A stretch of 64,000 bases of DNA. Source: Nitrososphaeraceae archaeon (GTDB lineage Archaea; Thermoproteota; Nitrososphaeria; Nitrososphaerales; Nitrososphaeraceae). The stretch covers positions 64,001 to 128,000 of the forward strand of contig DATGZA010000011.1 in the NCBI GenBank assembly GCA_035297365.1, written 5' to 3'. The position numbers were made by a program, and so were the translations under genes. Of this stretch, positions 2,077-59,893 are shown piece by piece. Each line of letters opens with the position of its first letter. Positions within the stretch are counted from its first letter, which is position 1. The notes below the pieces were generated by a model. That model saw only the letters and a list, made by a program, of their open reading frames with translations. It was not told where the DNA came from and ran no database searches.

Positions 2077-2148
2077 AAAAAATGTTACTGAACCCTGTTA
2101 ATATAAGGGCTTAGAGGATAGTCAACTGTTTTTGACGCAATTTTGTAG
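2077..2148 (+). repeat. Dispersed site A1 (left arm L1 + right arm A)
   Basis: aaaaaatgttact-GAACCC-N11-GGGCTT-agaggata-GTCAActgtttTTGAC-gcaattttgtag. Confidence 0.9.
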
Positions 2149-2452
2149 CCAGAAAAAGAGATATTGTGAATTGATAATCAGATGTAAAAGCAATTAAATG
2201 TAATTGTTCCTCAATTTATGATATAATTTCTATCATTATTCTTATATTATTATTGACATCTTTACGTCCATAATCTGAAAATCCTCCTAAAATTGGACAT
2301 AATCCGAAAGTTCTTTTATGGATGTTTAAATTTATAACTTAGCACCATAATAATAGTCTTATATCTGTATATTTTTACATCTTTTTCTGTGTCTTTTTTT
2401 GAGTAGATAAATATAATTATTGAAGTTGGGAATAAATGGTGAATAAGAAGAA

Positions 2453-2644
2453 ATGAGCGGCCAATATAGGGACTGCCTTTATCATATCACAATATATGCA
2501 GAGAGAGAAGGAACCCAGGACATACACTGTCAGACAGAAGCAACCAGAAATATATCATGTTGGACGGATTTAACAACTGTTAATTTCTGTGAATTCCATT
2601 ATCAATTAGTTTCTAGATTGATGGATGCTGAGGACAAAAAATGA
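2453..2644 (+). CDS. Small Cys/His-containing hypothetical protein
   Basis: 63-aa ORF, ATG start after a purine-rich run, tandem with the next small ORF. Confidence 0.4.
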   Translation: MSGQYRDCLYHITIYAEREGTQDIHCQTEATRNISCWTDLTTVNFCEFHYQLVSRLMDAEDKK

Positions 2645-2677
2645 TGAAGCAACAGAGATATCAAAGTAGTAACGGAT

Positions 2678-2899
2678 ATGTTTGTACAGTGTGAAAATAA
2701 GCAGTGTAAGAAATGGGTTAGATTATCCGCAGTAGATCCAGAAGATGGAATGAGAACAATTCCATTACTTTGTTTCACTAATTATAAAGGGAAAGGTGAA
2801 GATTTTTGTCTTATTGTAGTATCCTCTGACAAATTGGGTTGTCACCAATACACTCTACCTTCACATTGGGTATCGATCCAGAATCTATTCCATTATTAG
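2678..2899 (+). CDS. Small Cys-rich hypothetical protein; 3' end overlaps the opposite-strand gene
   Basis: CENKQC motif near the N-terminus; 73 aa. Confidence 0.35.
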   Translation: MFVQCENKQCKKWVRLSAVDPEDGMRTIPLLCFTNYKGKGEDFCLIVVSSDKLGCHQYTLPSHWVSIQNLFHY

Positions 2900-3664
2900 A
2901 TATTGATGTTGGGTCGAAATCTCTATCAACTATTATTCCTTTTTCCAACTGACATTCAATTAATGCATCAATCTCAGATTCGAAACCTGATCCTAAAATG
3001 GAAGAAAGGACAAGACGTAAGAAGTCATCGGATAGAATAACACCTGTTTCTTCTTCTGAATTTTGAATTATAGCACATAATTGTTCTATAGTATCCGTGG
3101 CAAATGTGATTACAAAAACCTCCTCCTCGCCTGGTGTAGTAATGGGTGGACCAATGGCGATAAAAGCAAAATCACCAAAATCTAAGATAGCAAGTAATTC
3201 TTCAATTGCTGCTTTGAGTTCAGGGTGTTCAGCAAAACATTCTTCACATCCTAGGTCTTCCTCTTCTTCTGGCGGTGGAGTAATTTTTACCTGTTCGTTG
3301 TCATTCACATTTGCGCATACGTTTAAAGGTTTCTATCAAAGTTTATTCTGTCTGCAAGTCCGTTACCGTTTTGAGTATTTGCTCCTTCCTGACCTCCTTC
3401 ATTTGTTGCTGCAGTAGCAGCACCGTCTTGAGGTATTTGGGTAATATCTATTCCATTGACATTTATGTTACTGTTTACACACTTTATTTTTTGGATATCT
3501 GTATAACTCTTTTTTTGATGGTTATTATCATATCCGTACTGGTCTCCGTACATTTGTGCAGTTGCATTTGTAATTGTTGATGGGTTCAAAGCCAGTATAC
3601 TTGTCGCTAGTATTGCTCCCAGTATAGAAGCAAAAACTATCATTCTGCTGTTGCTATTGCTCAT
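2811..3664 (-). pseudogene. CVNSNINVNG-module secreted protein, copy 1, split by a 1-nt deletion near 3325
   Basis: ORFs 3323..3736 and 2811..3308 join if AAC CTT TAA ACG is restored to AAC CTT GTA AAC GTA (NLVNV, as in the paralogs); likely start MSNSNSRMIVFAS at 3664. Confidence 0.8.
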
Positions 3665-3805
3665 TACATTGTTAAATACGATTTTAATATATCTAAGGTT
3701 GGAAGGAACATTATCTATCTTGTAATATTTTATCATGCTGAATTATTGACTATAAGAAGAATAGCAACTAATCTTTAAGTAAATATAATATGAAATATTT
3801 CAATA
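3665..3805 (-). promoter_or_regulatory. Conserved upstream leader of the CVNSNINVNG family (copy 1)
   Basis: Aligns by eye with 4456-4595, 25420-25554, 52133-52250 and 52905-53031; TATA-like ATATATTAAA about 20-27 bp before ATG. Confidence 0.7.
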
Positions 3806-3891: not shown

Positions 3892-4455
3892 TTATGGCGG
3901 TGGCAGTATTATTAAGCCTAATTCTGCTAGACAATTGACTATTGATTCTTTTTGCTTGTCTGTTATATTCGGTATCCCACCAAGTAGGAGTCCAAGAGAA
4001 AGGTTTTCCGCGCTTCCATTTGGTGTCTCAGCGAAAAAATCACACAATTCATCGATTGAATCAAAGTCGGTGATCTCTAACGCAGTGGCAATTTGTGCTC
4101 TATTTAGAACTGAAAACAAACAGTCCTCACAAGTTAGTTGGTCAGGACCGTTTATCTGTTCATTGTCATTAACATTTACACAGATATTTACTAGGTTTCT
4201 ATCGAAGTTTATTCTATCTGCAAGTCCATTGCCGTTCTCTGTATTCGGTTCTTCATTTGCTGCTGCTACTGCTGCAGTATTGTCTTGTGGCACTTGTGTG
4301 ATATCTACACCATTGATATTTATGTTACTGTTCACACATTTTATTTTCTGTATTTCCGCCTTTGCATTTCCTATCATCATTAATGGGTTTAAAACCAATA
4401 GACCTGTCGCAACTATCACTGCGATAGAAGCCAGAACTATCTTTTTACTGGTCAT
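3892..4455 (-). CDS. CVNSNINVNG-module secreted protein, copy 2 (intact), helical Cys-containing C-terminal domain
   Basis: Signal-peptide-like N-terminus; IQKIKCVNSNININGVDITQVPQD...NGNGLADRINFDRNLVNICVNVNDNEQ. Confidence 0.8.
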   Translation of the reverse strand: MTSKKIVLASIAVIVATGLLVLNPLMMIGNAKAEIQKIKCVNSNININGVDITQVPQDNTAAVAAANEEPNTENGNGLADRINFDRNLVNICVNVNDNEQINGPDQLTCEDCLFSVLNRAQIATALEITDFDSIDELCDFFAETPNGSAENLSLGLLLGGIPNITDKQKESIVNCLAELGLIILPPP

Positions 4456-5619: not shown

Positions 5620-5678
5620 GATATTAGCAGTATGTATAATGTTAAAATTTTTGATTTGAAAATTATTTAGTTTAATCA

Positions 5679-5840
5679 AGATCTGAAGGCTTCGACTATG
5701 ACATGTAATACGGATCAATACTCTCGTATTTAGTCATTTAGTAACTTATTTGAAATCTTTACCATATAATTCTGAGAGAATTTTGAAATAAAGATAAAGG
5801 GAATCAGTGGGATTTGAACGCTTCTATAAAGTGGGACCAG
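5679..5840 (+). repeat. Dispersed site B1 with long right extension
   Basis: gaaggcttc-GACTAT-gacatgtaata-CGGATC...gtatttag...gggaatcagtgggattt-GAACGC-N11-GGGACC; about 160 bp homologous to 49670-49830. Confidence 0.8.
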
Positions 5841-6251: not shown

Positions 6252-6869
6252 TTATCTTATTTTATTACCTAATTCTTCAATAAAAGCAATTTCTGATAAT
6301 GGTTTTCTTTCTCTAGGGGAATTAGCTTTTTCTCTATATCTTTCTGGTAATATTTCGTGAGAATCTTGATATCCAATTGCTATCATTATACCAATTTCAT
6401 ATTCATCGGGGATGTTGAAAACTTTCCCCGCTTTGTCTCTATCAAATCCACCCATTTCATGCATAATTAATCCTTGATTGAATGATTCAAGAAACATATT
6501 TTCATTGGCTGCACCTAAATCGTGAAAGTGAAGTCTATTATAAATTCCATTATCAGAATAAGTTTTTTTTGTTATTGCACAAATTAAAATTGGAGCTCGT
6601 TTAGCATAATTGTTTATTTCTAATAATACTGATCTTGCTTTATCAAGCTTCTCTGGCTTATCATCAGTAAAAACTATGTAACGCCATGGTTGTTCATTAC
6701 GCGACGATGGTGCCCATCTAGCGGCTTCGAGAATAGAAAGTAATTTTGATTTTTCTACTTTTTTAGTTGAAAATGCTCTTGCACTCCATCGTCTTGCAAT
6801 TAACTTATGTATTGGAAAATCTGTATTTGCTATTTTTGTTATCAAATTATTATTATTTTTATCGCTCAC
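6252..6869 (-). CDS. Nitroreductase family protein
   Basis: RRWSARAF, AARWAPSSRNEQPWRY, DLGAA, MGGFD, IAIGY. Confidence 0.93.
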   Translation of the reverse strand: MSDKNNNNLITKIANTDFPIHKLIARRWSARAFSTKKVEKSKLLSILEAARWAPSSRNEQPWRYIVFTDDKPEKLDKARSVLLEINNYAKRAPILICAITKKTYSDNGIYNRLHFHDLGAANENMFLESFNQGLIMHEMGGFDRDKAGKVFNIPDEYEIGIMIAIGYQDSHEILPERYREKANSPRERKPLSEIAFIEELGNKIR

Positions 6870-6945
6870 AAAAAATCACCGATTTCTCTTACTTTTTTTC
6901 TTATCCTTTGCATTTATATTCTATCCATTTTACTCTTGCAAAATA

Positions 6946-7016
6946 GATGTATGTGAACCCCTATATAACACGGGCTCGGAGAATAATCAACTGTTTTTGA
7001 CGCAATTTTGTAGTTC
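6946..7016 (+). repeat. Dispersed site A2 (L2 + A)
   Basis: gatgtatgt-GAACCC-ctatataacac-GGGCTC-ggagaataatcaactgtttttgacgcaattttgtagttc. Confidence 0.9.
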
Positions 7017-7177
7017 TGATCAGGAATTAATTACCTTACACTCTTATTATATTTTACATATATCTTATTTTATTTATAAAAATGAATTCAAATGAGACTA
7101 AAGTTTTCATTATTTTGATTTTTCAAATTTTTTTATAATATCTATCTGGTATAACAATCATATTATCAAAAGGGTAA

Positions 7178-7633
7178 CTAATGCCTTGAAGTCAATAACT
7201 TCTCTTTGTTATCTGCTTTAGCAAATGCATACAATGCATCATATACCGGAAATTGTTTTGCCATATTATCATAATCATCCTTTGATATAACATTAAAACC
7301 AGCAGCTATTGCAGCAAGTCCTGCTGACTGTGGTGTTAATTGTCTTTTTTCTGTGTCTGCACCTCTTACAATCTCTGCTAAGGTTAGTAGTTCTGGATTC
7401 TTTTGGTCAAGTTCATACTTTCTTATAATGGCATCAAATGAACATTCATCGCCATGATGACCCAATTCAACGTTCGGAACATCAAATGGAATAGCATCTT
7501 CATTTCTCATTATTTCAAGTACATTATGTGAAGGTACAAACAGAAATTTGGCTTCCTTATCTACAAAATTCCTTATCAGCCAAGGACATGCAATTCTGTC
7601 TACTTTAGCATGTTCTCTTGTTATCCATTTCAT
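7178..7633 (-). CDS. chrB: Chromate resistance protein ChrB domain protein
   Basis: MKWITRE...VDRIACPWLIRNFVD...PFDVP...HHGDECSFDAI...IVRGAD. Confidence 0.88.
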   Translation of the reverse strand: MKWITREHAKVDRIACPWLIRNFVDKEAKFLFVPSHNVLEIMRNEDAIPFDVPNVELGHHGDECSFDAIIRKYELDQKNPELLTLAEIVRGADTEKRQLTPQSAGLAAIAAGFNVISKDDYDNMAKQFPVYDALYAFAKADNKEKLLTSRH

Positions 7634-8022: not shown

Positions 8023-9411
8023 ATGACTAACCAAAGATTACTTTTGGTTTCTATATTGACATTATTAGTAGCTGCAGGTCTATTGGTCTTAAGTCCTTCA
8101 ATGATAATATGAAATGCACAAGGACAAATGTACAACTACGACTACCAAAACGATCACTATAAAGTTTATCCAGATCCAAAAAAAGAGTTCTGATGCAAAC
8201 ATCCAGAAAATTAATGTATCAATACCAACATCAATGTAAATGGAATAGATATTACTGAGACTCCTAAACACAGTACTGCTCTAGCAACAGCAAATGAACG
8301 AGGTGCTGAAGGAACAGCAGAAACAGCAAATACTCAAAACGGTAATGGCCTTGCCGATAGAATAAACTTGGACAAGAATGTTGTAAACATATGTGTAAAT
8401 GTTAATTTTAACGAACAGGTACAAGAAAATCCTCTTACTTTGATGACTTGGAATATCTATCAGGGTGCAGATCTGTCACCAATATTTGCTGCTACTACCC
8501 CCAATGAATTTTTTAAGGCTGTCGGTGCTGCTTATAATAGAGTCCAAGCAACCAATTTTGTGGAAAGGCCGGATTCAATTGCAGACGAGATCCAGGAAAG
8601 TCAACCTGATCTGATAGGTCTTCAAGAAGTGATATTACTTAGGACACAAATTCCTTTTGACGGTCCTACGACACCTGCAACTACGATTTCATTTGATTAT
8701 CTTAAAATTCCTATAGACTCACTAGCTGAACATGGATTAATTTATGAACCGATTGTTGTTCAGACAGGTACTAATATTGAAGTTCCAGGCTTGACATCTA
8801 CAGGCCTTGTGAATATAAGACTCACTGACAGGGATGTAATATTGGCCCGAGCAGACAAAGATTTTACATTATCAAATATCCATCGAGAGCAGTTTGATGT
8901 GAAACTACCATTAACAACTCTATTTGGATCTATTAGTATACCACACTCATGGGTTTCAGTGGATGTAACGTTTGATAAAGGAGATAAAGGCCGTATCGTC
9001 TCTACTCATCTAAAGCCCCTGTCTCCTATTATTCAGGGATTACAAGCAGATGAGTTGTTAAATGGGCCTGCTAATACAGATTTACCTGTTGTGTTGATAG
9101 GCGATTTCAATTCAAATGCTTATGGAACTGGGACACAAACATACACAAAACTAAAAGATGCAGATTTTATTGATGCGTGGACTATAAAGGGAAAAGGCAC
9201 TAGTTTTACTTGTTGCCAGGCTTATGATTTGCTAAACCAGGATTCTTCCCTAACTGATAGAATAGATTTGGTGATGTTCCGAGGCAATTTTGATGTAAAA
9301 GATATAGAAATTACTGGGAATTCGCAAAATGATCGTACAATATCTGGTCTTTGGCCATCGGACCATGCAGGACTTGTGACTAATCTAATACTGAATAGTG
9401 ATAAACATTAA
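8023..9411 (+). pseudogene. CVNSNINVNG-module copy 3: decayed N-terminal module fused to an endonuclease/exonuclease/phosphatase domain (ORF 8368..9411 is open)
   Basis: 8023-8410 encodes frameshifted IQKI.CINTNINVNGIDITE...NGNGLADRINLDKNVVNICVNVN; the EEP domain has MTWNIY, LQEV, GDFNS, RID and SDH motifs. Confidence 0.8.
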
Positions 9412-11654: not shown

Positions 11655-12611
11655 TTGTTAGGAATGTCTGTTTTCAATAGATACTATTATAGAATGTTTA
11701 AACCAAAACATTTGACATTAGGGGTAATATTTGCAATTGAAGCTTATGAAGGAGCAATTCCTAAAATGGAAAGACAGGTAGAGTTGGCTCAACGTGTAGA
11801 AGAGCTAGAATTTTCAGCATTATGGTTTCGCGATGTTCCATTATATGATCCTGGATTTGGAGATGTAGGACAAATTTATGATCCATGGGTTTATCTTGGA
11901 TATATTGCTGCACAAACAAAGACTATAGCTTTAGGAACTGCATCTATCATCTTTCCTTTAAGGCATCCAATTGACTTGGCAAAAGCAGCTTTTTCTGTTG
12001 ACCAATTAAGTAATGGACGATTGATACTCGGGATAGCATGTGGAGATAGACCTATTGAGTATCCAGCCTATGGAGTAGACTTTGAGATTAGAGATGTACT
12101 TTTTAGAGAAGGCGTTAATGATTTTCGCCGATTATCTGAAAGTTTTCCAAAATATCATTCGAAATTTGGATTATTAAATGGAGAAGTTGATCTTTTACCA
12201 AAACCTACATCTAGAAAACTACCATTATTTGTTACCGGAAATAGTAGGCAAACTATTGATTGGATTGCTGAAAATTCAGATGGATGGTTAATGTATCCTA
12301 GAGAAGTTCTTTTGCAACAACGTGTTATAACTAATTGGAATAATGCAGTCAAAAAAACTGGAAGTAGTTTTAAACCTTTTACTGAGTCATTATACATAGA
12401 CTTGACTAAAGACCCTGATGCCAATTTCGAGCGAATTCATCTTGGATACAGATTAGGAAGAAACAAATTATTTAAACATCTGATGAATCTAAAGGAAATT
12501 GGTGTAAATCATGTCCTTTTTAATCTTAAATATAGTAAGCGTCCTGCAGATGAAGTGTTAGAAGAACTCGGAAAATTCATAATACCATATTTTCCTCCTT
12601 TGAATGGATAA
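11655..12611 (+). CDS. Luciferase-like (LLM class) oxidoreductase
   Basis: ALWFRDVPL..P.FGDVGQIYDPWVYLGYIA, LRHPI, GDRPIEYPAYG. Confidence 0.9.
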   Translation: MLGMSVFNRYYYRMFKPKHLTLGVIFAIEAYEGAIPKMERQVELAQRVEELEFSALWFRDVPLYDPGFGDVGQIYDPWVYLGYIAAQTKTIALGTASIIFPLRHPIDLAKAAFSVDQLSNGRLILGIACGDRPIEYPAYGVDFEIRDVLFREGVNDFRRLSESFPKYHSKFGLLNGEVDLLPKPTSRKLPLFVTGNSRQTIDWIAENSDGWLMYPREVLLQQRVITNWNNAVKKTGSSFKPFTESLYIDLTKDPDANFERIHLGYRLGRNKLFKHLMNLKEIGVNHVLFNLKYSKRPADEVLEELGKFIIPYFPPLNG

Positions 12612-15730: not shown

Positions 15731-17029
15731 TTAATGTCCAAGATGTTCAGCACCTTGAAATGTTATGAATTGATGAATTGCATTAAGTAATTCTTTGTCT
15801 TTAGTTTCCAGTATTAATGTTGCACCATTATTTATTTCATTTATACTATATTTTATAAAATCCTTCTTTTCACTCATTATTTTAGTACCTGGAACGTCTT
15901 GCGCATGTATATAAAAAGGCTTGGTAAAGTTTCCTGATGAGAATTGCTTTTGAATATCAGAAATATGATCTTTGATTTGCTTTATGGTCTCCACATCACT
16001 ATTATTTAATGCAGTTATCACTATTTCGCCTCCTGTAGTAGTTGACTTAAACTCATGTAATATTTTGCTTTGATTAAAGCCCATAACCATAGTCCCTCTT
16101 TCTAGCATTGATATTGATGTTGACTGGTTATTGGTATCGTGTGCAGTAACGGTTGTTGAGTTTGTTAGTACGATCGCTTGACCTATCATCCAGGGATGAA
16201 TAGTACAATAATAATTGTAAGTTCCCTCTTTACCAAATATGTACGAAAAAGATTGACCTCTTGAAAGCATACCGGAATCAAATCTTAAAGCAGTATCTAT
16301 ACCTTCAGATAAAGGTCTTTGTGTTACGGTATGTAGATTACGATCATTGTTGGTCCATACTACCATCTGATCTTCTTTAAGATATATAGGATTTGGTTGA
16401 AAAGCATCAGTTGTATGTGAGGCTGCTCCTAACACTATTGATGTATATATTGTGTTATCACCATCAGCAGTTATTTGATTATTTCTCGGCATAGAAAAAT
16501 TACTTTTCGAACTTTCTTGCTGTTGTCCACCCTCCACCATCATATGATGATGTTTGCGATCCATAATAGATGGTTGTTGTCCACCCATCATCATCGGAGC
16601 CATCATCATACAGGGGATCATACTCATCATAGTCTGATTTCCCATCATCATCGGCGCCATCATCATACAGGGCATTGTCATACCTTGTCCCATTCCCATC
16701 ATCATCGATCCCATCATAGGCCATTGTTGTCCACCCATCATCATACCAGTATTATTCATCTGTTTCATCATTATATTTATCTTGCTGGGGTCAGTCATCA
16801 TATTCTGGTTCTGTGTTCCCATCATGTTATTCATCTGGTCTTTCGTAATTGGAGGATTTGCAAATACTGATTCTGTGTCTTTATAACTAGCAAGAAAAAC
16901 TATTACACTAAATACACATACCATAAAAAAGAGAATCAAGTATCTGCTATTCATATTATTAAAATTGATATTCATTAGATTGACAAAATCAACATTATAT
17001 AAAAAGATGTAGCTTATATTGTATAACAT
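15731..17029 (-). CDS. Exported Met-rich cupredoxin (plastocyanin/azurin-like) multidomain protein
   Basis: HTVT...FDSG...YYCTIHPWM type-1 copper motif; Met/His-rich tract; extra C-terminal domain. Confidence 0.85.
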   Translation of the reverse strand: MLYNISYIFLYNVDFVNLMNINFNNMNSRYLILFFMVCVFSVIVFLASYKDTESVFANPPITKDQMNNMMGTQNQNMMTDPSKINIMMKQMNNTGMMMGGQQWPMMGSMMMGMGQGMTMPCMMMAPMMMGNQTMMSMIPCMMMAPMMMGGQQPSIMDRKHHHMMVEGGQQQESSKSNFSMPRNNQITADGDNTIYTSIVLGAASHTTDAFQPNPIYLKEDQMVVWTNNDRNLHTVTQRPLSEGIDTALRFDSGMLSRGQSFSYIFGKEGTYNYYCTIHPWMIGQAIVLTNSTTVTAHDTNNQSTSISMLERGTMVMGFNQSKILHEFKSTTTGGEIVITALNNSDVETIKQIKDHISDIQKQFSSGNFTKPFYIHAQDVPGTKIMSEKKDFIKYSINEINNGATLILETKDKELLNAIHQFITFQGAEHLGH

Positions 17030-42263: not shown

Positions 42264-42320
42264 CGGGCTCGGAGGACTTCGAATTTCTATTAAATCAGGG
42301 TTCGGTAACATAATATTTAG
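42264..42320 (+). repeat. Dispersed site B5
   Basis: c-GGGCTC-ggaggacttc-GAATTT-ctattaaatca-GGGTTC-ggtaacataatatttag. Confidence 0.85.
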
Positions 42321-43644: not shown

Positions 43645-43679
43645 TTACAGGTCTCTCCTTCCTGTTTTATTACAATATT

Positions 43680-43746
43680 CATGTATATGAAACCAGATAT
43701 AGTACGGGCTAGTAGGACTTGGAATTTGGCTTGTAATTGGGATCGG
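43680..43746 (+). repeat. Dispersed site B6 (L2-like + B)
   Basis: catgtatat-GAAACC-agatatagtac-GGGCTA-gtaggacttg-GAATTT-ggcttgtaatt-GGGATC-gg. Confidence 0.8.
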
Positions 43747-44013
43747 CTTTCTGTTATTTTATCTTACATTTTTAATATGAAGAGTTGACTAATCACAAAA
43801 TATTAATTCAGTTAATGGTACTCGAACCGTTATTTATCAAATGAGGGTTCAGTATCAAGTATTGATATATTTATTCAAATAATTTTGAATGTACCAGACA
43901 CAGTGGGGCTCTTCACAGTTCCAAGATTCTAATTTTCTACAATGCTGTCAATTATCATTATTTTTGCGATATGGGAAGAAACATTATAAAACAAGCCTTT
44001 ACAGCTTCTATTT

Positions 44014-44643
44014 TCAATACTCTTTGTATCTGAAGCACTTTATCTCATGATCATTTACCATACCAACTGCCTGCATAAAGGCATAGCAGATGGTTGAGCC
44101 GACAAATTTGAAACCACGTTTAAGCAAGTCTTTGCTCATTATAACCGATTCCTTAGTGTTAATTGGAATATCTTTAATAGTTTTGATCTTGTGATTGATC
44201 GGCCTACCATCTACAAACTGCCAGATATAGACATCAAAGGAACCGAATTCTTTTTGAATTTTCAAAAATGCATTAGCATTTTTGATTGTAGATTCAATCT
44301 TCAACCGATTACGGATAATCCCAGAATCAGTAAGAAGTCGATCTATTTGTTCCTTCCCATAACGAGCTATTTTGTACGCATGGAAATCATCAAACGCCCT
44401 GCGGTAGTTATCACGCTTATTCAAAACGGTTTGCCAAGTAAGACCTGCTTGGGCACCCTCAAGAATTAGGAATTCAAAGAGTGTGCGGTCGTCATGTACT
44501 GGTACACCCCATTCCTTGTCATGATACTCAATCATAAGAGGATTTTTACATCCTACCCAACTACACCGTCTTTTGTTGTACATTCCACTTTCATTAGAGA
44601 AGGTATAGTTACTTGTGGATATAGCGTTCGACGATTTGTCCAT
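44014..44643 (-). CDS. tag: DNA-3-methyladenine glycosylase I
   Basis: RCSW, YHDKEWGVP, LEGAQAGLTW, GIIRNRLKI, GFKFVG..ICYAFMQAVGMVNDH. Confidence 0.95.
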   Translation of the reverse strand: MDKSSNAISTSNYTFSNESGMYNKRRCSWVGCKNPLMIEYHDKEWGVPVHDDRTLFEFLILEGAQAGLTWQTVLNKRDNYRRAFDDFHAYKIARYGKEQIDRLLTDSGIIRNRLKIESTIKNANAFLKIQKEFGSFDVYIWQFVDGRPINHKIKTIKDIPINTKESVIMSKDLLKRGFKFVGSTICYAFMQAVGMVNDHEIKCFRYKEY

Positions 44644-44775
44644 TTGCTTTAAAATAATATATCAATAATATTAAATTTATTATGTAACCTACAAGTATTA
44701 TGTTAGCACTATATTTCTAGGATGTAGTCAACTAGTTTGTTTGGATAATAAATTCATAATTTTGATTATCTTGAA

Positions 44776-44846
44776 GATGTATCAGAGCCTTGATGTTATA
44801 CGGGCTCAGAGGATAGTGAACTGATTTTGACACAATTTTGTAGTTC
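44776..44846 (+). repeat. Dispersed site A9 (L2 + A)
   Basis: gatgtatca-GAGCCT-tgatgttatac-GGGCTC-agaggatagtgaactgattttgacacaattttgtagttc. Confidence 0.9.
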
Positions 44847-45712
44847 AAAAATAATATAATAATAAAGTGACCAACTGATTTTCTCAAATAAAATTTTTCT
44901 GATAACTTCAGTGTCCGTAAGCTATAAAATATCTTGTATATTTACAAGTTTTCTAAATAATCTAAACCACAATACCTGAAGCAAAAATTATTTGTAATAA
45001 ATAAATTTTCTCAATTATTATAATATAGTTCCACGATTAATATTATTTTTTAACTATACTGATCTGCGTCAAATTCAATTTTTCTTCGACCAATTTATCC
45101 TCCAACAACAGATCGGGCACTCGAACCTCGAAGCAATAGTTCTACAGTATTATTCATCATTTACAGATTTCACAAATAAAATATCTGCATATTTCAGAAC
45201 AAAATGATTCAACTTGAATATGAGAAATTATTTGTTTGCCGAAATTGATAATTAGAAAAAAGAAGCTAGTTGATATATAAACAAATATCTATTAATTTCA
45301 TATATCGTGTAAATATTTTCAATTCAACTATCTGTCAAAATCTTAAATAAAATCTAAACTACTCTCTGATCTATTATAATGTTCATTATATGTATTAATG
45401 AAGTGTTACGAATGTAAGGTTGTTAGTCATTCTGGCAGGTATACTTTTGTTTTCTCTTATAGGTCTACTATCAGCTACAGCAATAACACAAACAAACAAT
45501 AATTATAGTAGAACATCCATATGCACAAGTTGCTAATAACAATGAAAATCTCTCAATTTTATTTTCCTTGGAAGCAAAACCAGTTGGGAACAACCAAAAT
45601 AATGTCACCCAATTAATCAATCAACATAATAACTCTAAAATGAGAGATATAGAATCTGCATTCAACAATACACTAGTTTCTAAGAACCAATTTAAAAATG
45701 AAGCCAGCTTTT

Positions 45713-48047: not shown

Positions 48048-49238
48048 TTGAGTCGTTTTTCTCATAAAGGAATAAGATTTTCAGGTGACTCCATAAAAAG
48101 TTGTATCTGTTTTATTGACGTTATAGATTCAACAAAAAATACTTTGAAATTTAGTGATTTAAAAGATACAAGAAAATATTACTCGACATTTATTAACTCC
48201 ATAAATGAAATAGTAAAAAAGTATAATGCAAAGATTATAAAAAATATTGGCGATTCATTACTATTTTATTTCCCTGATACTGCTGATACTATGAAGATTT
48301 CAAGGTTTGTAAAGGCATTAGAATGCGGTTTGGAAATTCTTGAAAATCGTCAAAATGTTAATGATAAAGTAGCAGCTGAAAACTTTCCGCCATTTAACTA
48401 TAGGATAAGCATGGATTACGGAGTGGTTGAAATAGCCTTATCAGGCGAGTACAATCAATTAGATATTTTTGGATCCGCAGTAAACCTATGTGCCAAAATT
48501 AATATTCTATCTAACCCAAATGAATTAGTAATAGGAGACAATTTGTACAGAATCCTAAAAGCTTATTCACCTATTGTCGAAAAGCATTACTTGTTTAATT
48601 TTTCTAAAGATTTTACTGTTTTAAATGGTTGTGCAACTTGCTCTCAAAAGGATGTATGCAAATTGTTTCGTGTATCAGGAGAGTATATGACTTTAGAGGA
48701 TACTAAATACTCGTGCTATATTCTTAAAAGAAAATATCCAAAAAAATTATCCCATAAAAATCAATATATTTCCAAATTGAATAATACAAGAGGTCCTCAA
48801 TTTTCTGTTCTTGCTGGTCAGAGAGATCAGGTTGAATATGAGAAAGAATATAGAGATTATAATAATATAAAAAAAATTATTCTGGTTGATGATGATCCTG
48901 AAGTTTTATACACTTTCAAATCATTTTTGACTGAATTTAAGTACAATGTTAATTCCTTTACAGATTACGAACAGGCATTACAATACATGAGATCAAATCC
49001 ATTCTATGATAATCTTTTGATAATAACAGATATTGTATTAAAAAAACTGAATGGATTGCAGTTTTATCTACAGGCCAAAACTATTGATCCGACTATAAAA
49101 TTTCTTTTTATTACGGCATATGATATTGTAGATGAGGTAATATCCGTAATCCCTGGACTGAATAAGAGTGATATAATTAGAAAACCTATAGAAAAAAATA
49201 GGTTTGTGAATAAGGTAAATTCACTACTACCTATTTAG
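48048..49238 (+). CDS. Class III adenylate/guanylate cyclase with C-terminal response-regulator receiver domain
   Basis: FIDVIDST, KNIGDSLL, RISMDYG, DIFGSAVNLCAKI; ILVDDD...ITDI...NG...FITA...KP. Confidence 0.88.
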   Translation: MSRFSHKGIRFSGDSIKSCICFIDVIDSTKNTLKFSDLKDTRKYYSTFINSINEIVKKYNAKIIKNIGDSLLFYFPDTADTMKISRFVKALECGLEILENRQNVNDKVAAENFPPFNYRISMDYGVVEIALSGEYNQLDIFGSAVNLCAKINILSNPNELVIGDNLYRILKAYSPIVEKHYLFNFSKDFTVLNGCATCSQKDVCKLFRVSGEYMTLEDTKYSCYILKRKYPKKLSHKNQYISKLNNTRGPQFSVLAGQRDQVEYEKEYRDYNNIKKIILVDDDPEVLYTFKSFLTEFKYNVNSFTDYEQALQYMRSNPFYDNLLIITDIVLKKLNGLQFYLQAKTIDPTIKFLFITAYDIVDEVISVIPGLNKSDIIRKPIEKNRFVNKVNSLLPI

Positions 49239-49652
49239 TATTTTACATTTTGAGCACTAATTATGTGAGGGTAGGTCATAATTCAATAAACAAATATCGT
49301 TTCACTAAAAATAAAAAATTCTATGAGGTAATAGACAGAAAATTTTTGAAATTTTTTATCTACTGTAAGATGAAATAATTTTAAATCGGATAAGAAAATA
49401 AGATTCATTTCATTAATATTTCAAGAAATTTTTAAAAATTACGTTATAAATATTCTATTTGAACATAAAATATTATCTGAAATCTCATAAATACCGTCAT
49501 AGTTTTGATAAATTCTTTCAACGTCATTTTTGGGGAATTACAGATGACGATAGAAAAAATACAATTCCAAATCTTATTTACAAAAAATATCCTGATTTAT
49601 TTAGTAATTGAGGTTATATTGATCGTTTGGAATTACAGTTGCAATTAATAAT

Positions 49653-49830
49653 GACTTTATTATACAAATGGGTTCTGAGGGCTTCGAGTATGACATGTAG
49701 TTGGGATCGGTTAACTAGTATTTATTAATTTGGTAACTTATTTGAATATTTGCCAAACAATTTCTAATATATTAGAAAAATGAAAAAGGGAATCAATGGA
49801 ATTTGAACCCTTCGATAAAGTGGGACCATT
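49653..49830 (+). repeat. Dispersed site B7 with long right extension
   Basis: GACTTT-N11-GGGTTC-tgagggcttc-GAGTAT-gacatgtagtt-GGGATC...gggaatcaatggaattt-GAACCC-N11-GGGACC. Confidence 0.88.
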
Positions 49831-50177: not shown

Positions 50178-51158
50178 CTACAGCTGACCTATCAAACGCA
50201 TGAGTTGGGATTGCTCATTCTTCTCATCTACAACAGGCACCAAGCTTACCATAAGTTCATCCAAACCTGCATCCAGAAGTTTGGTCAACGATGTAGCTAC
50301 TGTGTCTTCATTTCCAGAGATTATCATATTATTAACAAGATCATCAGTCACTTTCTTATCTGATGTTAGTGGGAAGCCTGCATCAGCAAACATTTTAACA
50401 TAAAAAGGAAACATCGCGTACATATCAAACATTTTATGACCTTCGACCATTACAGAATCATGATCTTGGCTAAGTGCTACCGGAACATGTGCTACCAATG
50501 GAGGAGGGTATGAGCGTCCATTAGCAGTAGCTGCTTTACGTAATAACGGAATTCCAGTATGGAGTAAATATGGAACAGGACACATCCATGAAAGAGCTCC
50601 ATCAGCAATTTCCCCAGCCAATTGAAATGCCTTTTTTCCTAGTGTTGAAATTAACACTGGAGTTTGAGCTGTACGTGGAAATTCGATTACAATGTTAAAG
50701 AACTCTCCATGATGGTCTACCTTGCCATCCCTGAGGATGGAATGCAGCACTTTTACATATTCGCGTAAATGAACCAAGGGTGTTGTCTGGGGTAAGCCGT
50801 ACATATCTTCTACAATAGTACGATGACTAGGCCCAACTCCAAGGCGCAATCTACCTGGTGCAATATCATGAAGAGCAAGAACCTGTTGTGCTAGGACTAC
50901 AGGATGCCGTGGATATGTTGGTACAATAGACGTTCCTAAGCGTACTATAGATGTTTTTATTGCTGCTGCTGCAAGTGTTGTCAGTACATCAGGGGACCAA
51001 GGAGTCTGGGCCATCCAGATTTGCTGGACACCGACAGTTTCGGCTGCAGCAATTGTTTTTATTGCTGCTGTTGCATTTGTCCCATTTACGATGAGTCCAA
51101 CACATTCGGGTATTGGTCGTCGAATTGGAGAAACTTGTAAATCTGAATATTTTGTCAT
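50178..51158 (-). CDS. LLM class flavin-dependent (probably F420) oxidoreductase
   Basis: VRLGTSIVPTYPRHP..LAQQ, GRLRLGVGPSH, LAGEIADG. Confidence 0.9.
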   Translation of the reverse strand: MTKYSDLQVSPIRRPIPECVGLIVNGTNATAAIKTIAAAETVGVQQIWMAQTPWSPDVLTTLAAAAIKTSIVRLGTSIVPTYPRHPVVLAQQVLALHDIAPGRLRLGVGPSHRTIVEDMYGLPQTTPLVHLREYVKVLHSILRDGKVDHHGEFFNIVIEFPRTAQTPVLISTLGKKAFQLAGEIADGALSWMCPVPYLLHTGIPLLRKAATANGRSYPPPLVAHVPVALSQDHDSVMVEGHKMFDMYAMFPFYVKMFADAGFPLTSDKKVTDDLVNNMIISGNEDTVATSLTKLLDAGLDELMVSLVPVVDEKNEQSQLMRLIGQL

Positions 51159-51480: not shown

Positions 51481-51617
51481 ATCTGCTTGGCCCCATTGAC
51501 TAAATGGGCTCAATAACTAAAACTTAAGCTTGGAATGCTTCGAGTTTGACATGTAATTGGAATATGTTTTTTAAGATTTAAAATTTGACTTTTCGTATTC
51601 ACCAATAATGTGACCAC
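51481..51617 (+). repeat. Dispersed site B8 (L6 + B)
   Basis: atctgctt-GGCCCC-attgactaaat-GGGCTC...ggaatgcttcgagtttgacatgtaattggaat. Confidence 0.85.
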
Positions 51618-52074: not shown

Positions 52075-52250
52075 CACACTAACTAACTATCACTGCCATA
52101 GAAGCTAGATCTATCTTTTTGTTAGTGGTTATTACGGTGTTATTTACGAATTTAATATATCTGTGGTTAGAAGGAACATTATCTAATGTTCTAATGTTCT
52201 ATCATTCTGAGTCATTAACTATAGTAAGGATAGCAATTGATCTTCAAGTT
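52075..52250 (-). pseudogene. CVNSNINVNG-family copy 5: conserved leader plus decayed signal-peptide stub
   Basis: Leader nearly identical to 4456-4570 including the palindrome; stub reads TNKKIDLASMAVIVS*. Confidence 0.65.
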
Positions 52251-52306
52251 CAATTGGTTGACGGGCTCGGAGGATTGTCAACTGATTCTGACACAAATTT
52301 ATAGTT
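52250..52306 (+). repeat. Dispersed site A10 (L4 + A)
   Basis: tcaattggttgac-GGGCTC-ggaggattgtcaactgattctgacacaaatttatagtt. Confidence 0.88.
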
Positions 52307-52484
52307 GAGATCATTTTTTCTATTATTAATTATAATACTTTTAAATGTAATAAAAAAATTACTAATTTTATATAATACTATAATATTAGTTCAAATAATT
52401 CTGTAGAATAAGATAACTTCGAGGTTCATTTTATAATAATTATTAAAAATTTTGGGAATTAAAAAAGGAGAATTAATTAAGTTA

Positions 52485-53031: not shown

Positions 53032-53508
53032 ATGAGCAATAGTAATAACAACAGAATGATAGTATTTGCTTGCATACTGGGAGCAATACTAGCAACAAGT
53101 ATACTGGCTCTAAACCCATCAACAATTACAAATGCACAAGCAATGCCATATGGCAGTGAAGATTATGACTATCGATATTCCTATGGTGATCAATATGGAG
53201 ATGGTCGCAACTATTATCAAGACGAGAATAGATATAGTTATGATAATAACCATCAAAAAAAGAGTTCTCACACAGATACCCAGAATATAAAGTGTGTAAA
53301 CAGTAACATAAATGTAAATGGAATAGATATTGTAACTAATATCAAAATAGAAATAAATGCAAACCTATATCTAGAAAAATGTGCTGCATACTTTACAGAA
53401 GAAAATCAAAAATTTATGTATCAAAGAAAAATAATATATTCTCAAAGATTTTCAAATGAAATAATGTATGTTAGTTCTTTTATACTAGTAGTTAAAACTA
53501 CAAATTAA
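53032..53508 (+). pseudogene. CVNSNINVNG-module copy 6, family similarity ends after NGIDI (about 53330)
   Basis: MSNSNNNRMIVFACILGAILATSILALNPS...QNIKCVNSNINVNGIDI then unrelated AT-rich sequence. Confidence 0.75.
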
Positions 53509-56352: not shown

Positions 56353-56441
56353 ATCTGCTTGGTCCCATTTACTAAATGGGTTCAATTGTAAAAATACCAG
56401 GCTTCGAGGGCTTCGAGTATGACATGTAGTTGGGAGCGGTT
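56353..56441 (+). repeat. Dispersed site B9 (L6 + B)
   Basis: atctgctt-GGTCCC-atttactaaat-GGGTTC...gcttcgagggcttc-GAGTAT-gacatgtagtt-GGGAGC-ggtt. Confidence 0.88.
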
Positions 56442-56848: not shown

Positions 56849-58849
56849 TTATCCAACTACCATGTTGAACAAAGATGATATTCCATCATTGTCACTCAGG
56901 TCAATAAAGGGGTTGAATGTCAGGCCGTTGTTGTTACTTGCTCTAAAGAAGATATCTGTATCAACACCATTACTGTTATCTCTCCAAGCAACATAGACAT
57001 TGTTGCCAGCGACTATCATCTGTTGTAAATCCGATATTCCATCATTGTCACTCAGGTCAATAAAGGGGTTGAATGTCAGGCCGTTGTTGTTACTTGCTCT
57101 AAAGAAGACATCATCGTCTCCACCATTACTGTTATCATTCCATACAACATATACATTTTTTCCAGAAGAAAGTATTTGCTTGTCGTCAAATTCTTTAGAG
57201 TTCCCATCATTGTCACTCAGGTCAATAAAGGGGTTGAATGTCAGGCCGTTGTTGTTACTTGCTCTAAAGAAGATATCTCGATCACCACCATTACTTTGGT
57301 CATTCCATATAATGTATACATCATTGCTAGACACAAGCATTTTGGGTCTAAATGAATTTCCATCATTGTCACTGAGATCAATGACAGAATTGAATGTGAG
57401 GCCTATGTTATTACTTGCTCTAAAAAAGACATCAGTATCTCCTCCATTAATTTGATCCCATACAACATAGACATTGTTTCCAGAGGCAAGCATCTGTATG
57501 ATTGATGCATCACCCATAACGTTAAGATCAATAAATGGGTTGAATGTCAAGCCATTGTTGTTACTTGCTCTGAAGAGTAAATTACCACCGTTGGGAATAT
57601 CTTGATGCCACACGACATAGACATTGTTGCCAGCAGTAACAATCTGTGGTCTACCAGTCGCTGGTTCAGGGGGACTGCTGAGTTCTATAACAGAATTGAA
57701 TGTCAGGCCGTTGTTGTTACTTGCTCTGAAGAGGAAATCATCACCATTGCTTTCGTCACTCCACAAAACATAGACATTATTGCTAGAGACAAGCATTTGT
57801 GGACTAAAGGAGTCCCCATCATTATCACTAAGGTTAATAACAGCGTTGAAATTCTGTCCGTTGTTGTTACTTGCTCTAAAAAAGACATCTATATCGCCAC
57901 CATTAGATCTATCATTCCACAAAACATATACATTATTGCCAGAGACACGCATTTGCTGATCAGATGGTGATCCATCACTATCACTTATATCAATAAAAGC
58001 GTTGAAATTCTGTCCGTTGTTGTTACTTGCTCTAAAGAGAATATCGTTAGCGCCACTACTGTGATCTACCCATGAGACATAGATATTATTGCCAGAGACG
58101 AGCATTTGAGGATTACCAGAGTTTCCATCATTGTCACTCAGGTCAATAACAGGGTTGAATGTCAGGCCGTTGTTGTTACTGACTCGAAAGAAGATATCTA
58201 CATCACCGCCGTTACTCGTATCTTCCCAGACAACATAGACATTGTTGCCAGAGACGAGCATTTGCGGTAAGAAACCCGAATCTCCATCATTGTCACTCAG
58301 GTTAATAACAGGGTTGAATGTCAGGCCGTTGTTGTTACTTGCTCTAAAGAAGATGTCAAAATCGCCACCGTTAGTGTTATCTCTCCAAGCAACATAGACA
58401 TTATCATCTTCTGGTTGTTGTTCTACTACTATGCGTTGATTATTCAAATTCAAATTTGCACAGATGTTTACAAGATTTTTATTTGTAACGATATTATTAT
58501 TATCATCGTTATGTTTATGATCTTTTAAATTATTATTGTTAGTATCAGCAGAGAAAGTATCTATATCAGACTCTACTCCATTTACATTCAGGTTATCGTT
58601 GCTACAGTCAATAATTTGTTGATTGTTATTTCTTGTGGTTGGAATAGTAAAGGTAGGATAATAAGCATCTTCTTTTTCACTATAGTTATCCTCAACTGCT
58701 ATAGCATCATTCAAAACTCCAAGAGTGGATAAATATGAAATAGGAGATACTGAAAATATATTTCCAATTGTACTAAGAGACAAAATTGTTGTTAGAAATA
58801 TTATATGGATTTTCCGGTGTTTGCAACTACTATTACGATACATATACAA
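56849..58849 (-). CDS. Secreted BNR/Asp-box repeat (sialidase-like propeller) protein with a diverged CVNSNINVNG module (copy 7)
   Basis: IIDCSNDNLNVNGV...KNLVNICANLN, then nine repeats of NVYVxW...FFRASNNNGLTFN...LSDNDG. Confidence 0.85.
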   Translation of the reverse strand: MYMYRNSSCKHRKIHIIFLTTILSLSTIGNIFSVSPISYLSTLGVLNDAIAVEDNYSEKEDAYYPTFTIPTTRNNNQQIIDCSNDNLNVNGVESDIDTFSADTNNNNLKDHKHNDDNNNIVTNKNLVNICANLNLNNQRIVVEQQPEDDNVYVAWRDNTNGGDFDIFFRASNNNGLTFNPVINLSDNDGDSGFLPQMLVSGNNVYVVWEDTSNGGDVDIFFRVSNNNGLTFNPVIDLSDNDGNSGNPQMLVSGNNIYVSWVDHSSGANDILFRASNNNGQNFNAFIDISDSDGSPSDQQMRVSGNNVYVLWNDRSNGGDIDVFFRASNNNGQNFNAVINLSDNDGDSFSPQMLVSSNNVYVLWSDESNGDDFLFRASNNNGLTFNSVIELSSPPEPATGRPQIVTAGNNVYVVWHQDIPNGGNLLFRASNNNGLTFNPFIDLNVMGDASIIQMLASGNNVYVVWDQINGGDTDVFFRASNNIGLTFNSVIDLSDNDGNSFRPKMLVSSNDVYIIWNDQSNGGDRDIFFRASNNNGLTFNPFIDLSDNDGNSKEFDDKQILSSGKNVYVVWNDNSNGGDDDVFFRASNNNGLTFNPFIDLSDNDGISDLQQMIVAGNNVYVAWRDNSNGVDTDIFFRASNNNGLTFNPFIDLSDNDGISSLFNMVVG

Positions 58850-59167
58850 AACATTGCAAAAACATTTGTATATTATTATTTTGAAAAATTTCTAGGGGTT
58901 AATTTAATTTAATAGCTCATAATTAAAAATAATACTACAAAATAACAAGTGATGATGTATCTAATATGATTATGTTAATATCAACTAGTATAATATTACA
59001 TAATTAGAATTAATTTTTAATATTTAAAATGAAGCCACAAACCCCTGGTTAAAAGCGATCTTGATTTTCATCAAGTTACATCTCGTCGTCATATGACTCT
59101 CAATTTCAGTCGTTGGCAATTACAACAATTGCATCTACTTTAAAACAATATCTTCGGCATTAATAGC

Positions 59168-59238
59168 ATATTAATAAACTAATACGTAGGCGCTCAAACG
59201 GAGGTGTGTAAACTGTTTTTGACACAATTTTGTAGTTC
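59168..59238 (+). repeat. Dispersed site A11 (L3 + A, with AAAC inserted in the core)
   Basis: atattaataaact...ggcgctc-aaac-ggaggtgtgtaaactgtttttgacacaattttgtagttc. Confidence 0.85.
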
Positions 59239-59311
59239 AGAATAAGTATTTTTTTAAAGCGTAATAATATTTTGATCGAACTTATAATATTGTATATAAC
59301 TTATAATACTA

Positions 59312-59746
59312 ATGGCAGGAATGACTAAAGATGAAATCCGAAATTTTCTTTTAAAAGGCACTTTTACAGGAAAACTCGGAACAATTAACAAAAATGGAAC
59401 ACCGCATGTAGTTCCTATTTGGTATACATTAGATGACGAGGATAATATTTTATTTAATACAGATAATAATTCAGTAAAAGCAAAAAATATTAAACGTGAC
59501 AATCGAGTCCGCTTATGTGTAGATGATCAGACTCCTCTTTTCTCATTTGTTACTATTGACGGTGTAGCAGAAATAATTAGTAAAGAGCCAAAAGAAGTTT
59601 TCAAATGGGCTAAAATTATTGCTGCAAGGTATATGGGTGATGATAAAGCCGAAGAGTATGGTAGGAGAAATAGTTCAGAAGGTGAACTATTAATAAAAAT
59701 AAAACCAACCAAGGTTATTGGTCAAAAGGATACAGCAGGATGGTAA
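59312..59746 (+). CDS. PPOX class (probably F420-dependent) oxidoreductase
   Basis: GTINKNGTPHVVPIWY, K.KNI.RD.RV.LCVDD, IAARYMG. Confidence 0.9.
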   Translation: MAGMTKDEIRNFLLKGTFTGKLGTINKNGTPHVVPIWYTLDDEDNILFNTDNNSVKAKNIKRDNRVRLCVDDQTPLFSFVTIDGVAEIISKEPKEVFKWAKIIAARYMGDDKAEEYGRRNSSEGELLIKIKPTKVIGQKDTAGW

Positions 59747-59765
59747 ATAATCAATTCAACTTTTC

Positions 59766-59893
59766 ATAAATGAATTATTTATTTTATAAATTAATGAATT
59801 AAAGGTTAAAAATTATACGGGTCGTTGGTATTATAGAGGGTTCTGAGGGCTTCGAGTTCTCATTATAACAGGGTTCGACTACCGTGTATTTAG
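59766..59893 (+). repeat. Dispersed site B10 (L5 + B variant)
   Basis: GGGTTC-tgagggcttc-GAGTTC-tcattataaca-GGGTTC-gactaccgtgtatttag. Confidence 0.85.

Follow-up and report, generated by a model that had tools for sequence, protein, structure and literature searches.

Accretion involving cis-mobilizable elements (CIMEs) in streptococci gives tandem units flanked by attachment (att) sites, some of which have no recombination genes and could be excised by the integrase of a neighbour; such arrays are linked to conjugation and comprise two or three units. In the tycheposon islands of Prochlorococcus, as set out in part of the preprint that describes them (10.1101/2020.12.28.424599), an inward-facing tyrosine integrase lies at a tRNA gene and newer elements push the older ones inward. 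The same part of the preprint reports scattered partial tRNAs and fragmented integrases, an adaptive accessory cargo and one or two elements per genome (10.1101/2020.12.28.424599). In the Archaea, according to the main text of a survey of Thaumarchaeota, 39 of 68 integrated elements lie in the 3' part of tRNA genes, with tyrosine recombinases and att repeats of a median of 17 bp; they occur as single or double integrations, occasionally in tandem, with a median size of 17 kb, and the term tRNA-Arg is not found in that main text (PMC6563490). Here we analyse a 64,000-nucleotide (nt) stretch of DNA from Nitrososphaeraceae archaeon (assembly GCA_035297365.1, contig DATGZA010000011.1, positions 64,001 to 128,000), hereafter the window, in which short recurrent sites separate blocks of accessory genes. 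With a probability of roughly 0.8, these are att sites left by integrative elements with the 3' end of tRNA-Arg(TCG) as their target, and the array arose by their tandem accretion.

As in tRNA-targeted islands, partial copies of a tRNA 3' end bound the units of the array and integrase fragments lie beside sites. A full tRNA with an adjoining integrase is present in four related genomes (G017, G010, G003 and G016) and is not visible in the source genome, G000. The original prediction, made from the window, had proposed an undescribed, integron-like recombination system with sites other than attC. Its first half holds, in that the sites bound blocks which are reassorted at them; the second half does not, the core of the sites being the 3' end of tRNA-Arg. 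A tandem tRNA-targeted island had been set aside because the window holds no tRNA, and tRNA-Arg(TCG) lies outside the G000 assembly altogether; it is this case that fits the tRNA identity, the adjoining integrase and the remnants. Integrons reported so far from Archaea are of the classical attC/IntI type, and 'Nitroso' does not occur in the text of PMC9668308; Thaumarchaea lack xerA, according to part of a further paper (Cortez 2010, PMC2958812).

Site anatomy, tRNA-Arg(TCG) and the adjoining integrase

Each site is modular, with a left arm of about 35-45 nt, an 11-nt core, GGGCTCGGAGG, and a right arm of type A, B or B''. Arm A has the form GG-TGTGTSAA-CTGWTT-TTGACACAATTTTGTAGTT, its final 25 nt being almost invariant; arm B is GCTTCGAGYATGACATGTARTTGGGATC, and B'' is a third right-arm type. 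The total set comprised 295 sites in 117 sequences, and among the 288 sites whose left arms were sorted there are at least four families (F1, F2 and so on) with 38, 30, 29 and 22 members, besides 99 unique left flanks. Every left-arm family pairs with both arm A and arm B, and the families mostly adjoin unrelated upstream DNA (in the largest, 26 of 703 pairs are homologous upstream).

In the window the core, with at most one mismatch, has eight matches, all on the + strand, against 0.03 expected, and none of 100 shuffles reaches eight. The 11 listed copies of arm A were all recovered on the + strand, both by a repeat-family search (family D6) and by nhmmer; the repeat search together with a direct listing yields the copies of arm B as well. 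Seven of the ten listed copies of arm B were recovered by nhmmer (E<0.1, as for arm A), at 5688, 26451, 40946, 43717, 49680, 51537 and 56410, and the sites at 36870, 42265 and 59838 were read by eye as the variant arm B'', the core followed by GCTTCGA, which the profile hidden Markov model (HMM) of arm B misses at 36870. The original prediction of about 21 co-oriented intergenic sites is borne out: all 21 exist, on the + strand, between open reading frames (ORFs) of at least 100 amino acids (aa), and two of them overlap only short TTG-start ORFs that have no family match.

The tRNA was found through an exact core adjoining a PF00589 match in G017, a long-read metagenome-assembled genome (MAG) that is the same genome as G041, with identical coordinates. 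ARAGORN calls tRNA-Arg(tcg) there at C10:1147352-1147426. On the opposite strand its 3' end reads CGGGCTCGGAGGGCTTCGATCCC, which equals the core GGGCTCGGAGG plus the first bases of arms B and B''. Identity with the tRNA 3' end covers 12 nt in sites with arm A or B'' and 19 nt in sites with arm B. When the tRNA was compared with G000 by blastn, 19-nt matches were obtained at five arm B/B'' sites, with 100% identity at C11:134710, C11:143378 and C6:194 and 95% at C11:90439 and C11:106264 (C11 is the contig on which the window lies).

In G017, left-arm sequence of family F3 lies directly 3' of the tRNA, and an ORF of 436 aa starts 59 nt past the tRNA, reading into the element; the next site, 4.6 kb on, is composed of F1, core and B''. 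ARAGORN found tRNA-Arg in eight of nine loci of relatives, and the tRNA is followed by an integrase ORF in four of the seven loci that were scanned for ORFs (436 aa in G017, 479 aa in G010, 440 aa in G003 and 333 aa in G016). The tRNA is at or near a contig end in G006, G018 and G022, and in G015 no integrase ORF follows it. Matches to PF00589 score 28.1 bits in the genome scan and 26.3 bits with the protein for the G017 ORF, 28.1 bits for that of G010 and 18.6 bits for that of G016, the cut-off being 27.1; the ORF of G003 has only a sub-threshold match to the N-terminal SAM-like domain PF02899 (19.3 bits versus 22.3).

Traces of these integrases accompany the sites themselves. About 70 nt on from the left arms of families F2 and F3 (30 and 29 of the 288 sites) there are truncated ORFs beginning MPQKLETVLK.. 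or MPTKL.., which are the N-termini of these integrases. By tblastn, integrase remnants were detected beside 14 of the 295 sites, all divergent from the site; on C11 they lie at 60.5, 107.7 (43.5-43.6 kb of the window) and 137.7 kb, and another fragment is at 149.9 kb. It is likely that the tyrosine integrase next to the tRNA catalyses the exchange.

Because the G000 assembly has no intact tRNA-Arg(TCG), the anchoring of its array is deduced from the relatives, which suggest that the array of the window was, or still is, anchored at this tRNA. Contig C6 of G000 begins with two sites 1276 nt apart, and the B'' and A sites beside the G017 tRNA are spaced 1275 nt; the tRNA-proximal part of the G000 array was probably lost in a contig break. 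PF00589 has four matches in G000, none of them on C11, and neither PF00239 nor PF01797 has any. The three intact integrase types of G000 were considered as the enzyme of the array and rejected, none of them being array-specific: they occur in 17, 16 and 19 of the 24 genus genomes and in 4, 3 and 4 of the 16 genomes of other genera.

Another integrase of G000 is encoded on contig C12 (locus L001), where a 467-aa ORF called from GTG at 33265-34714 overlaps tRNA-Thr(cgt) at 33265-33339, so that the true start must be further in. It has the tRNA-then-integrase layout, the C-terminal Cys-pairs and the ILECLK motif seen in the tRNA-Arg integrases, and looks like a sister element family with a different tRNA target.

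A new integron-type system, with a dedicated and unrecognised recombinase unconnected to the tRNA-linked integrase, would also have co-oriented sites separating accessory genes, and no known recombinase family was found on C11. We regard it as highly improbable, since the core is the 3' end of tRNA-Arg with an integrase adjoining. Moreover, single-stranded DNA folds of eight window sites, on both strands, are no better than those of shuffles (z from -1.85 to +2.22), and in none of them do the two ends pair, which disfavours attC; the attC end motifs RYYYAAC and GTTRRRY are absent from the sites on direct reading, as had been predicted. Integron cassettes are mostly single promoterless ORFs in one orientation, whereas the blocks here are multigenic, with one to nine ORFs on both strands.

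In the mechanism that we propose for accretion at tRNA-Arg(TCG), the left arm would be the integrase-proximal end of the element to the left, with its leftward promoter and the start of its integrase gene. The core would be a partial copy, 11-19 nt long, of the tRNA 3' end, the segment of identity shared with the tRNA target, and right arm A, B or B'' would be the integrase-distal end of the element to the right. In the orientation of the sites, a unit would then run from right-arm sequence through cargo and integrase gene to a left arm. Repeated integration, whether the target is the tRNA or any pre-existing copy of the site, would stack elements head to tail; most units would subsequently lose the integrase by deletion or frameshift, leaving one to four cargo genes between two sites, and recombination between sites, fresh integrations and ordinary deletions would reassort the blocks between species. 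Head-to-tail stacking would explain why sites are co-oriented whatever the direction of the cargo genes. Composite junctions would explain why left and right arms combine freely, why the cargo has a fixed orientation with respect to the sites, why left arms contain leftward promoters and gene starts, and why the sites are restricted to one region and one genus.

Extent, orientation and distribution of the array

The source genome G000 has 2.52 Mb in 110 contigs and is 97% complete. HMMs of the sites were trained on the window copies and used with nhmmer to search its contigs. On C11 there are 17 of the 21 matches to arm A (E<0.001) and 11 of the 13 listed matches to arm B (E<1), together 28 of 34, all on the + strand; the others are on C6, C26, C27 and C60. 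The original prediction had confined the array to positions 2077-59893 of the window, and it runs far past the window edges, over C11 40.4-143.4 kb. The arm A pattern (at most three mismatches) was present in all 24 further genus genomes surveyed and in none of the 16 that represent other genera of the order, and a reversed control gave no match throughout.

Two genomes of the genus, G012 and G018 (98% complete), are almost devoid of arm A, with one match each. The exact cores of G012 sit within a repeat-protein gene, and one degenerate site lies on its contig C17. At about 109.2 kb on that contig, an F2-like left arm and core are joined to a sequence resembling tRNA-Arg, which neither ARAGORN nor Rfam calls as a tRNA and which is possibly a hybrid or decayed target. 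The named records that bear the motif are soil MAGs of Nitrososphaeraceae or Nitrososphaerales, plus two contigs filed under bacterial MAGs; viral contigs had no arm A match. One of the two, a 484-kb contig of a 'beta proteobacterium' MAG (G042:C23, CAWJAU010000023.1), has 27-41% GC and six arm A sites (loci L139 and L140) in its first ~20 kb and 60-68% GC beyond, and looks like a chimera of an archaeal array fused to bacterial DNA. The other, a contig of a 'Bacilli' MAG (CALVUW010000002.1, L060), carries one arm A.

Site orientation is uniform in 78 of the 79 sequences with two or more sites. The sole exception is a 300 kb stretch of G017 C10 (loci L127, L136 and L145), in which sites point leftward up to 1.170 Mb, rightward from about 1.176 to 1.359 Mb, and leftward again at 1.362 Mb, the site-bearing part being ~220 kb long. 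The 6.7 kb between the divergent arrays hold metabolic genes (named by eye) and no integrase or recombinase. Reverting a single inversion of ~190 kb would give one leftward array of ~220 kb beginning at the tRNA-Arg gene. Judged by site orientation, replichore polarity fits poorly as a cause with two switches inside 190 kb.

The neighbouring genes bear on whether the sites could be signals for gene expression. For arm A (250 hits, all loci), the upstream gene has the same or the opposite direction in 98 and 116 cases, and the downstream gene in 101 and 116, that is, orientation is independent of the genes. Around arm B, gene ends tend to converge (upstream 40 same and 14 opposite, downstream 12 and 40). 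The original prediction that flanking genes point either way stands for arm A, with this bias at arm B. A signal acting in cis at the DNA or RNA level, whether promoter, terminator, insulator or small RNA, and retained for its role in expression or in organising the chromosome, with the exchange of blocks being merely homologous recombination at repeats, would be in keeping with the position of arm B mostly between convergent genes, with the leftward TATA-like boxes and gene starts that direct reading reveals in left arms, and with the two T-runs of arm A. A contig from an RNA library also spans the site at 42265, although RNA-library contigs over two sites do not demonstrate transcription. 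Nevertheless, this explanation has very little probability in our view: it is at odds with the indifference of arm A to its neighbours and leaves unexplained the tRNA identity, the integrase remnants and a near-absolute co-orientation over 100 kb.

A structured RNA was likewise rejected. At gathering thresholds Rfam gave no match in the window, and RNAalifold found no consensus structure on either strand among 230 arm A and 57 arm B copies. A left-arm hairpin, GAGCCC-N11-GGGCTC, pairs in 556 of 1368 cells and is a trait of some arm families only.

Two further kinds of mobile sequence were considered. Arm A contains a dif-like 8-6-8 palindrome, TGTGTCAA-CTGATT-TTGACACA; 11 of 161 canonical copies have it in perfect form and the others imperfectly, so the original statement that the sites lack a dif layout needs qualification in this arm. 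In pdif modules, sites alternate in orientation. Xer/dif or pdif modules were rejected here, as the palindrome occurs in arm A alone, the sites are co-oriented and no Xer is tied to them. The terminus of a miniature inverted-repeat transposable element or insertion sequence was rejected as well, since folds and direct reading reveal no terminal inverted repeat across the 85-nt site. Transposase-like ORF fragments do occur inside array blocks (12 pieces from seven sources, the longest 211 aa, IS6-like by eye), among others at G000 C11:49253-49534, at G017 local positions 187877-188284 and 226346-226998, and at L109:5398-6033; these fragments showed no relation to the arms and were discarded as the origin of the sites.

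Reassortment and the exchange point

Blocks are reassorted between genomes at the sites. Comparing flanks of 300 nt on either side, we obtained 212 inter-genome site pairs with homology downstream and 156 with homology upstream, and only 10 in which both sides are shared (six without the G000-G017 pair). In 534 of 535 pairs, the orientation of homologous flanks with respect to the site is preserved. The genomes G000 and G017 are collinear at ~92-95% identity over C11 5.5-85 kb and scrambled beyond, and one difference of 3.26 kb between them is delimited by two arm A sites (G000 46255 versus G017 local 181880/185163). Moreover, the window block 32008-33652, which encodes an MFS transporter, recurs at 95% identity in locus L034, followed there by arm B and not by arm A, and its homology ends at GGGCTCGGAG. 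Synteny breaks thus coincide with sites in these cases, as expected, and do not in two deletions described below.

Some array segments of MAGs assigned to separate species (L030/L108, L082/L117 and L046/L085) have 97-100% identity over ~490 nt, the site included, which would reflect either recent block transfer or a close relationship of the populations.

According to the linkage of variable positions, upstream blocks remain homologous across left arm, core and ~10 nt of arm A, and downstream blocks become so only past GTAGTT; the intervening 27 nt vary too little to place the exchange. In the accretion mechanism, the exchange would lie within the tRNA-derived core.

A different possibility, which we consider tentatively, is that the array is a still-active, integron-like platform. 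The blocks without integrase would then be minimal cassettes with a complete site, moved by an integrase in trans as CIMEs are, and the point of exchange may be the palindrome or the arm A end instead of the tRNA core. Such a platform would be an archaeal functional analogue of the chromosomal integron, in which tens of integrase-less cassettes are excised, re-inserted and exchanged between species in trans, a proposal that is similarly doubtful. It would accommodate the palindrome of arm A, the combination of all left families with both right arms and the exact stop of block homology at GTAGTT. About two thirds of the sites, besides, retain one of the at least four left-arm families even though the integrase is gone and the upstream DNA is unrelated. 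In ten orthologous pairs, sites are 92% identical versus 84-89% in the flanks; however, this sample is too small to infer selection, and the sampling relies on conservation, so that decayed sites escape detection and conservation is overstated. In addition, no excised circle or re-insertion was seen in assembled public contigs, the G000 assembly has no intact integrase of the F2/F3 type, and independent integrations and deletions suffice for reassortment without mobilisation in trans.

The comparison with public reads was limited to assembled contigs, and runs of soil metagenomes from 10 studies, beyond the one from which this DNA may stem, contain 55-69% of the sampled words. Joints or loose ends at sites in such contigs may stem from other copies of the repeat or from its assembly, and we give them little weight. 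In one contig, from another soil metagenome, 35521 is joined to 37929, so that one arm A ends at the DNA after arm A of the next-but-one site (at 37890). This arm-end to arm-end joint would suit an active platform; however, its shorter side has 57 letters at 90% likeness, and it may be an assembly artefact at a repeat.

Several observations weigh against accretion at tRNA-Arg(TCG), that metagenome contig among them. The Pfam support for the integrases next to the tRNA is marginal (18.6-28.1 bits against the 27.1 cut-off). The window and C11 contain no tRNA gene (ARAGORN finds none in the window) and no PF00589 match, and an intact tRNA-Arg(TCG) is absent from an assembly that is 97% complete. 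None of the three intact integrase types of G000 is found in every genome of the genus. The main + array of G017 points away from the tRNA at 1.147 Mb, so an inversion has to be assumed. The fine mapping does not put the exchange within the tRNA-derived core. Finally, two differences of ~788 bp each between G000 and G017 are ordinary deletions that are not bounded by sites, each removing or adding a whole site (G000 C11:83350-84139 versus G017 local 212996-213003, and G017 local 195804-196593 versus G000 C11:54672). One of the two truncates a gene in its 3' part, and short TTAAnTTAAy direct repeats flank the other; thus, sites are also lost by non-specific deletion.

Cargo and comparison with described systems

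Most units consist of one to four genes without an integrase. Pfam scans of 40 window ORFs agree with the original description of the enclosed genes as unrelated accessory functions (Table 1); ferritin and PNPOx are also present. Among these ORFs no recombinase was found, and the cargo of the window is also without primase or helicase.

Table 1. Sites, integrase remnant and Pfam-assigned genes of the window. Coordinates are window positions; F1-F5 are left-arm families.
Feature	Position	Strand	Evidence
att-like site, left arm F1 + core + arm A	2078-2152	+	repeat search, direct listing, nhmmer, left-arm families
att-like site, arm B, degenerate core	5645-5720	+	repeat search, listing, nhmmer
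nitroreductase	6252-6869	-	Pfam
att-like site, F2-like left arm + core + arm A	6943-7017	+	repeat search, listing, nhmmer
ChrB_C	7178-7633	-	Pfam
EEP phosphatase	8368-9411	+	Pfam
LLM monooxygenase	11655-12611	+	Pfam
cupredoxin-domain protein	15731-17029	-	Pfam
att-like site, F5 + core + arm A	19843-19917	+	repeat search, listing, nhmmer, left-arm families
phosphoesterase	21543-23246	+	Pfam
att-like site, F1 + core + arm B; 19 nt at 95% identity with tRNA-Arg 3' end	26407-26482	+	listing, nhmmer, blastn
att-like site, F4 + arm A, core reduced to GAGG	28829-28903	+	repeat search, listing, nhmmer, left-arm families
Rieske/FMN reductase	29782-30900	+	Pfam
att-like site, F5 + core + arm A; start of 1.65 kb MFS-transporter block	31962-32036	+	listing, nhmmer
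MFS transporter	32212-33516	+	Pfam
att-like site, F1 + core + arm A	33613-33687	+	core search, listing, nhmmer
Zn-ADH (Zn-dependent dehydrogenase)	34166-35218	-	Pfam
att-like site, arm A, unique left flank; left end of contig joint 35521 to 37929	35447-35521	+	repeat search, listing, nhmmer
Kelch	35710-36636	+	Pfam
att-like site, variant arm B''	36835-36910	+	listing by eye
att-like site, F3 (integrase-proximal arm) + core + arm A	37855-37929	+	repeat search, listing, nhmmer, left-arm families
MFS transporter	38331-39968	+	Pfam
att-like site, arm B	40897-40975	+	listing, nhmmer
Zn-ADH (Zn-dependent dehydrogenase)	41160-42209	+	Pfam
att-like site, exact core + arm B''; 12-nt run identical to tRNA-Arg 3' end	42230-42310	+	core search, listing
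HSP20	42647-43282	-	Pfam
truncated remnant of an MPQKL-type integrase (aa 17-46, at 63% identity), divergent from site at 43708	43508-43597	-	tblastn
att-like site, F2 + core + arm B	43673-43748	+	listing, nhmmer
3-methyladenine glycosylase	44014-44643	-	Pfam
att-like site, F5 + core + arm A	44773-44847	+	core search, repeat search, listing, nhmmer
cyclase/receiver	48048-49238	+	Pfam
att-like site, arm B	49637-49712	+	repeat search, listing, nhmmer
LLM monooxygenase	50178-51158	-	Pfam
att-like site, arm B	51493-51568	+	repeat search, listing, nhmmer
att-like site, F3 + exact core + arm A; 12-nt run identical to tRNA-Arg 3' end	52234-52308	+	core search, listing, nhmmer
att-like site, arm B	56366-56441	+	repeat search, listing, nhmmer
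att-like site, F4 + arm A	59165-59239	+	repeat search, listing, nhmmer
att-like site, variant arm B''	59803-59880	+	listing by eye

Small proteins with signal-peptide-like N-termini and no Pfam match are encoded at 3323-3736 (-), 3892-4455 (-) and 53032-53508 (+) of the window. The family has further copies at C11 39.6-40.2, 89.4-89.9 and 136.0-136.6 kb and also in G017, and a copy at window positions 52119-52254 is truncated precisely where the left arm of the 52269 site lies. These repeated proteins were rejected as recombinases in view of their N-termini and the lack of a Pfam match. A 666-aa ORF at 56849-58849 (-) has weak BNR/Asp-box matches and about ten tandem repeats of 150-165 nt (families D1-D3 and D9). 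KdpA (540 bits) is encoded at 62114-63763 (+) and followed by more long ORFs (C11 127.8-130.6 kb), in a site-free stretch of 10 kb inside the array; it is probably part, with the ORFs that follow, of a kdp potassium-transport operon.

If accretion at tRNA-Arg(TCG) is correct, the array offers an account of how one genus of soil Nitrososphaeraceae builds and turns over an accessory store of 100-220 kb, whose genes cover redox enzymes, transporters, stress proteins and DNA repair. One tRNA-Arg gene alone would serve as the landing pad for small integrase-borne elements, and the resulting island would be reassorted at the leftover sites. The partial tRNA-Arg copy together with arm A or B could be used as a simple marker for gene flow among uncultured soil archaea. 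As a caution, arrays of 'novel recombination sites' should first be compared with the tRNA 3' ends of related genomes, since the tRNA that anchors them may fall beyond the window or the assembly.

A description of these arrays was not found in the literature covered; the supplementary tables of PMC6563490 and of the tycheposon preprint could list tRNA-Arg targets. Integrons, as presented in part of PMC9668308, resemble the array in having an integrase beside a primary site (here the tRNA, in relatives), a long co-oriented array that separates accessory genes, and sites that are more alike within a lineage. They differ in that the sites here are partial tRNA copies with duplex arms and form no attC hairpin, and in that the cassettes are multigenic, lie on both strands and have their own promoters, each unit having originally brought its own integrase. 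The likeness to Xer/dif sites is confined to the palindrome of arm A (8-6-8, or 11-6-11 if imperfections are allowed), and the differences are co-oriented sites and no Xer-like protein tied to them.

Streptococcal CIMEs are similar as tandem, att-flanked units, some without recombination genes, and differ in being bacterial, linked to conjugation and arranged in short arrays. The thaumarchaeal elements share the tRNA 3' target and the short att, whereas arrays of tens of tiny integrase-less units are not reported in the part of that survey considered here (PMC6563490). The closest known systems are the tycheposon islands, which, going by part of their description, have in common with this array the tRNA target, the inward-facing integrase, accretion, partial tRNAs, integrase fragments and accessory cargo. 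Here the host is archaeal, and one tRNA-Arg(TCG) would seed at least 27 HMM-detected sites on one contig over ~100 kb (~220 kb in G017), with units that are mostly of one to four genes without integrase; the likeness drawn here is one of island layout. Island building of the tycheposon type would thereby extend to the Archaea at a much larger copy number. The process, tRNA-targeted accretion, is known; new here are an archaeal island at tRNA-Arg, its unusually high copy number, its tiny and mostly integrase-less units, and its occurrence throughout a genus.

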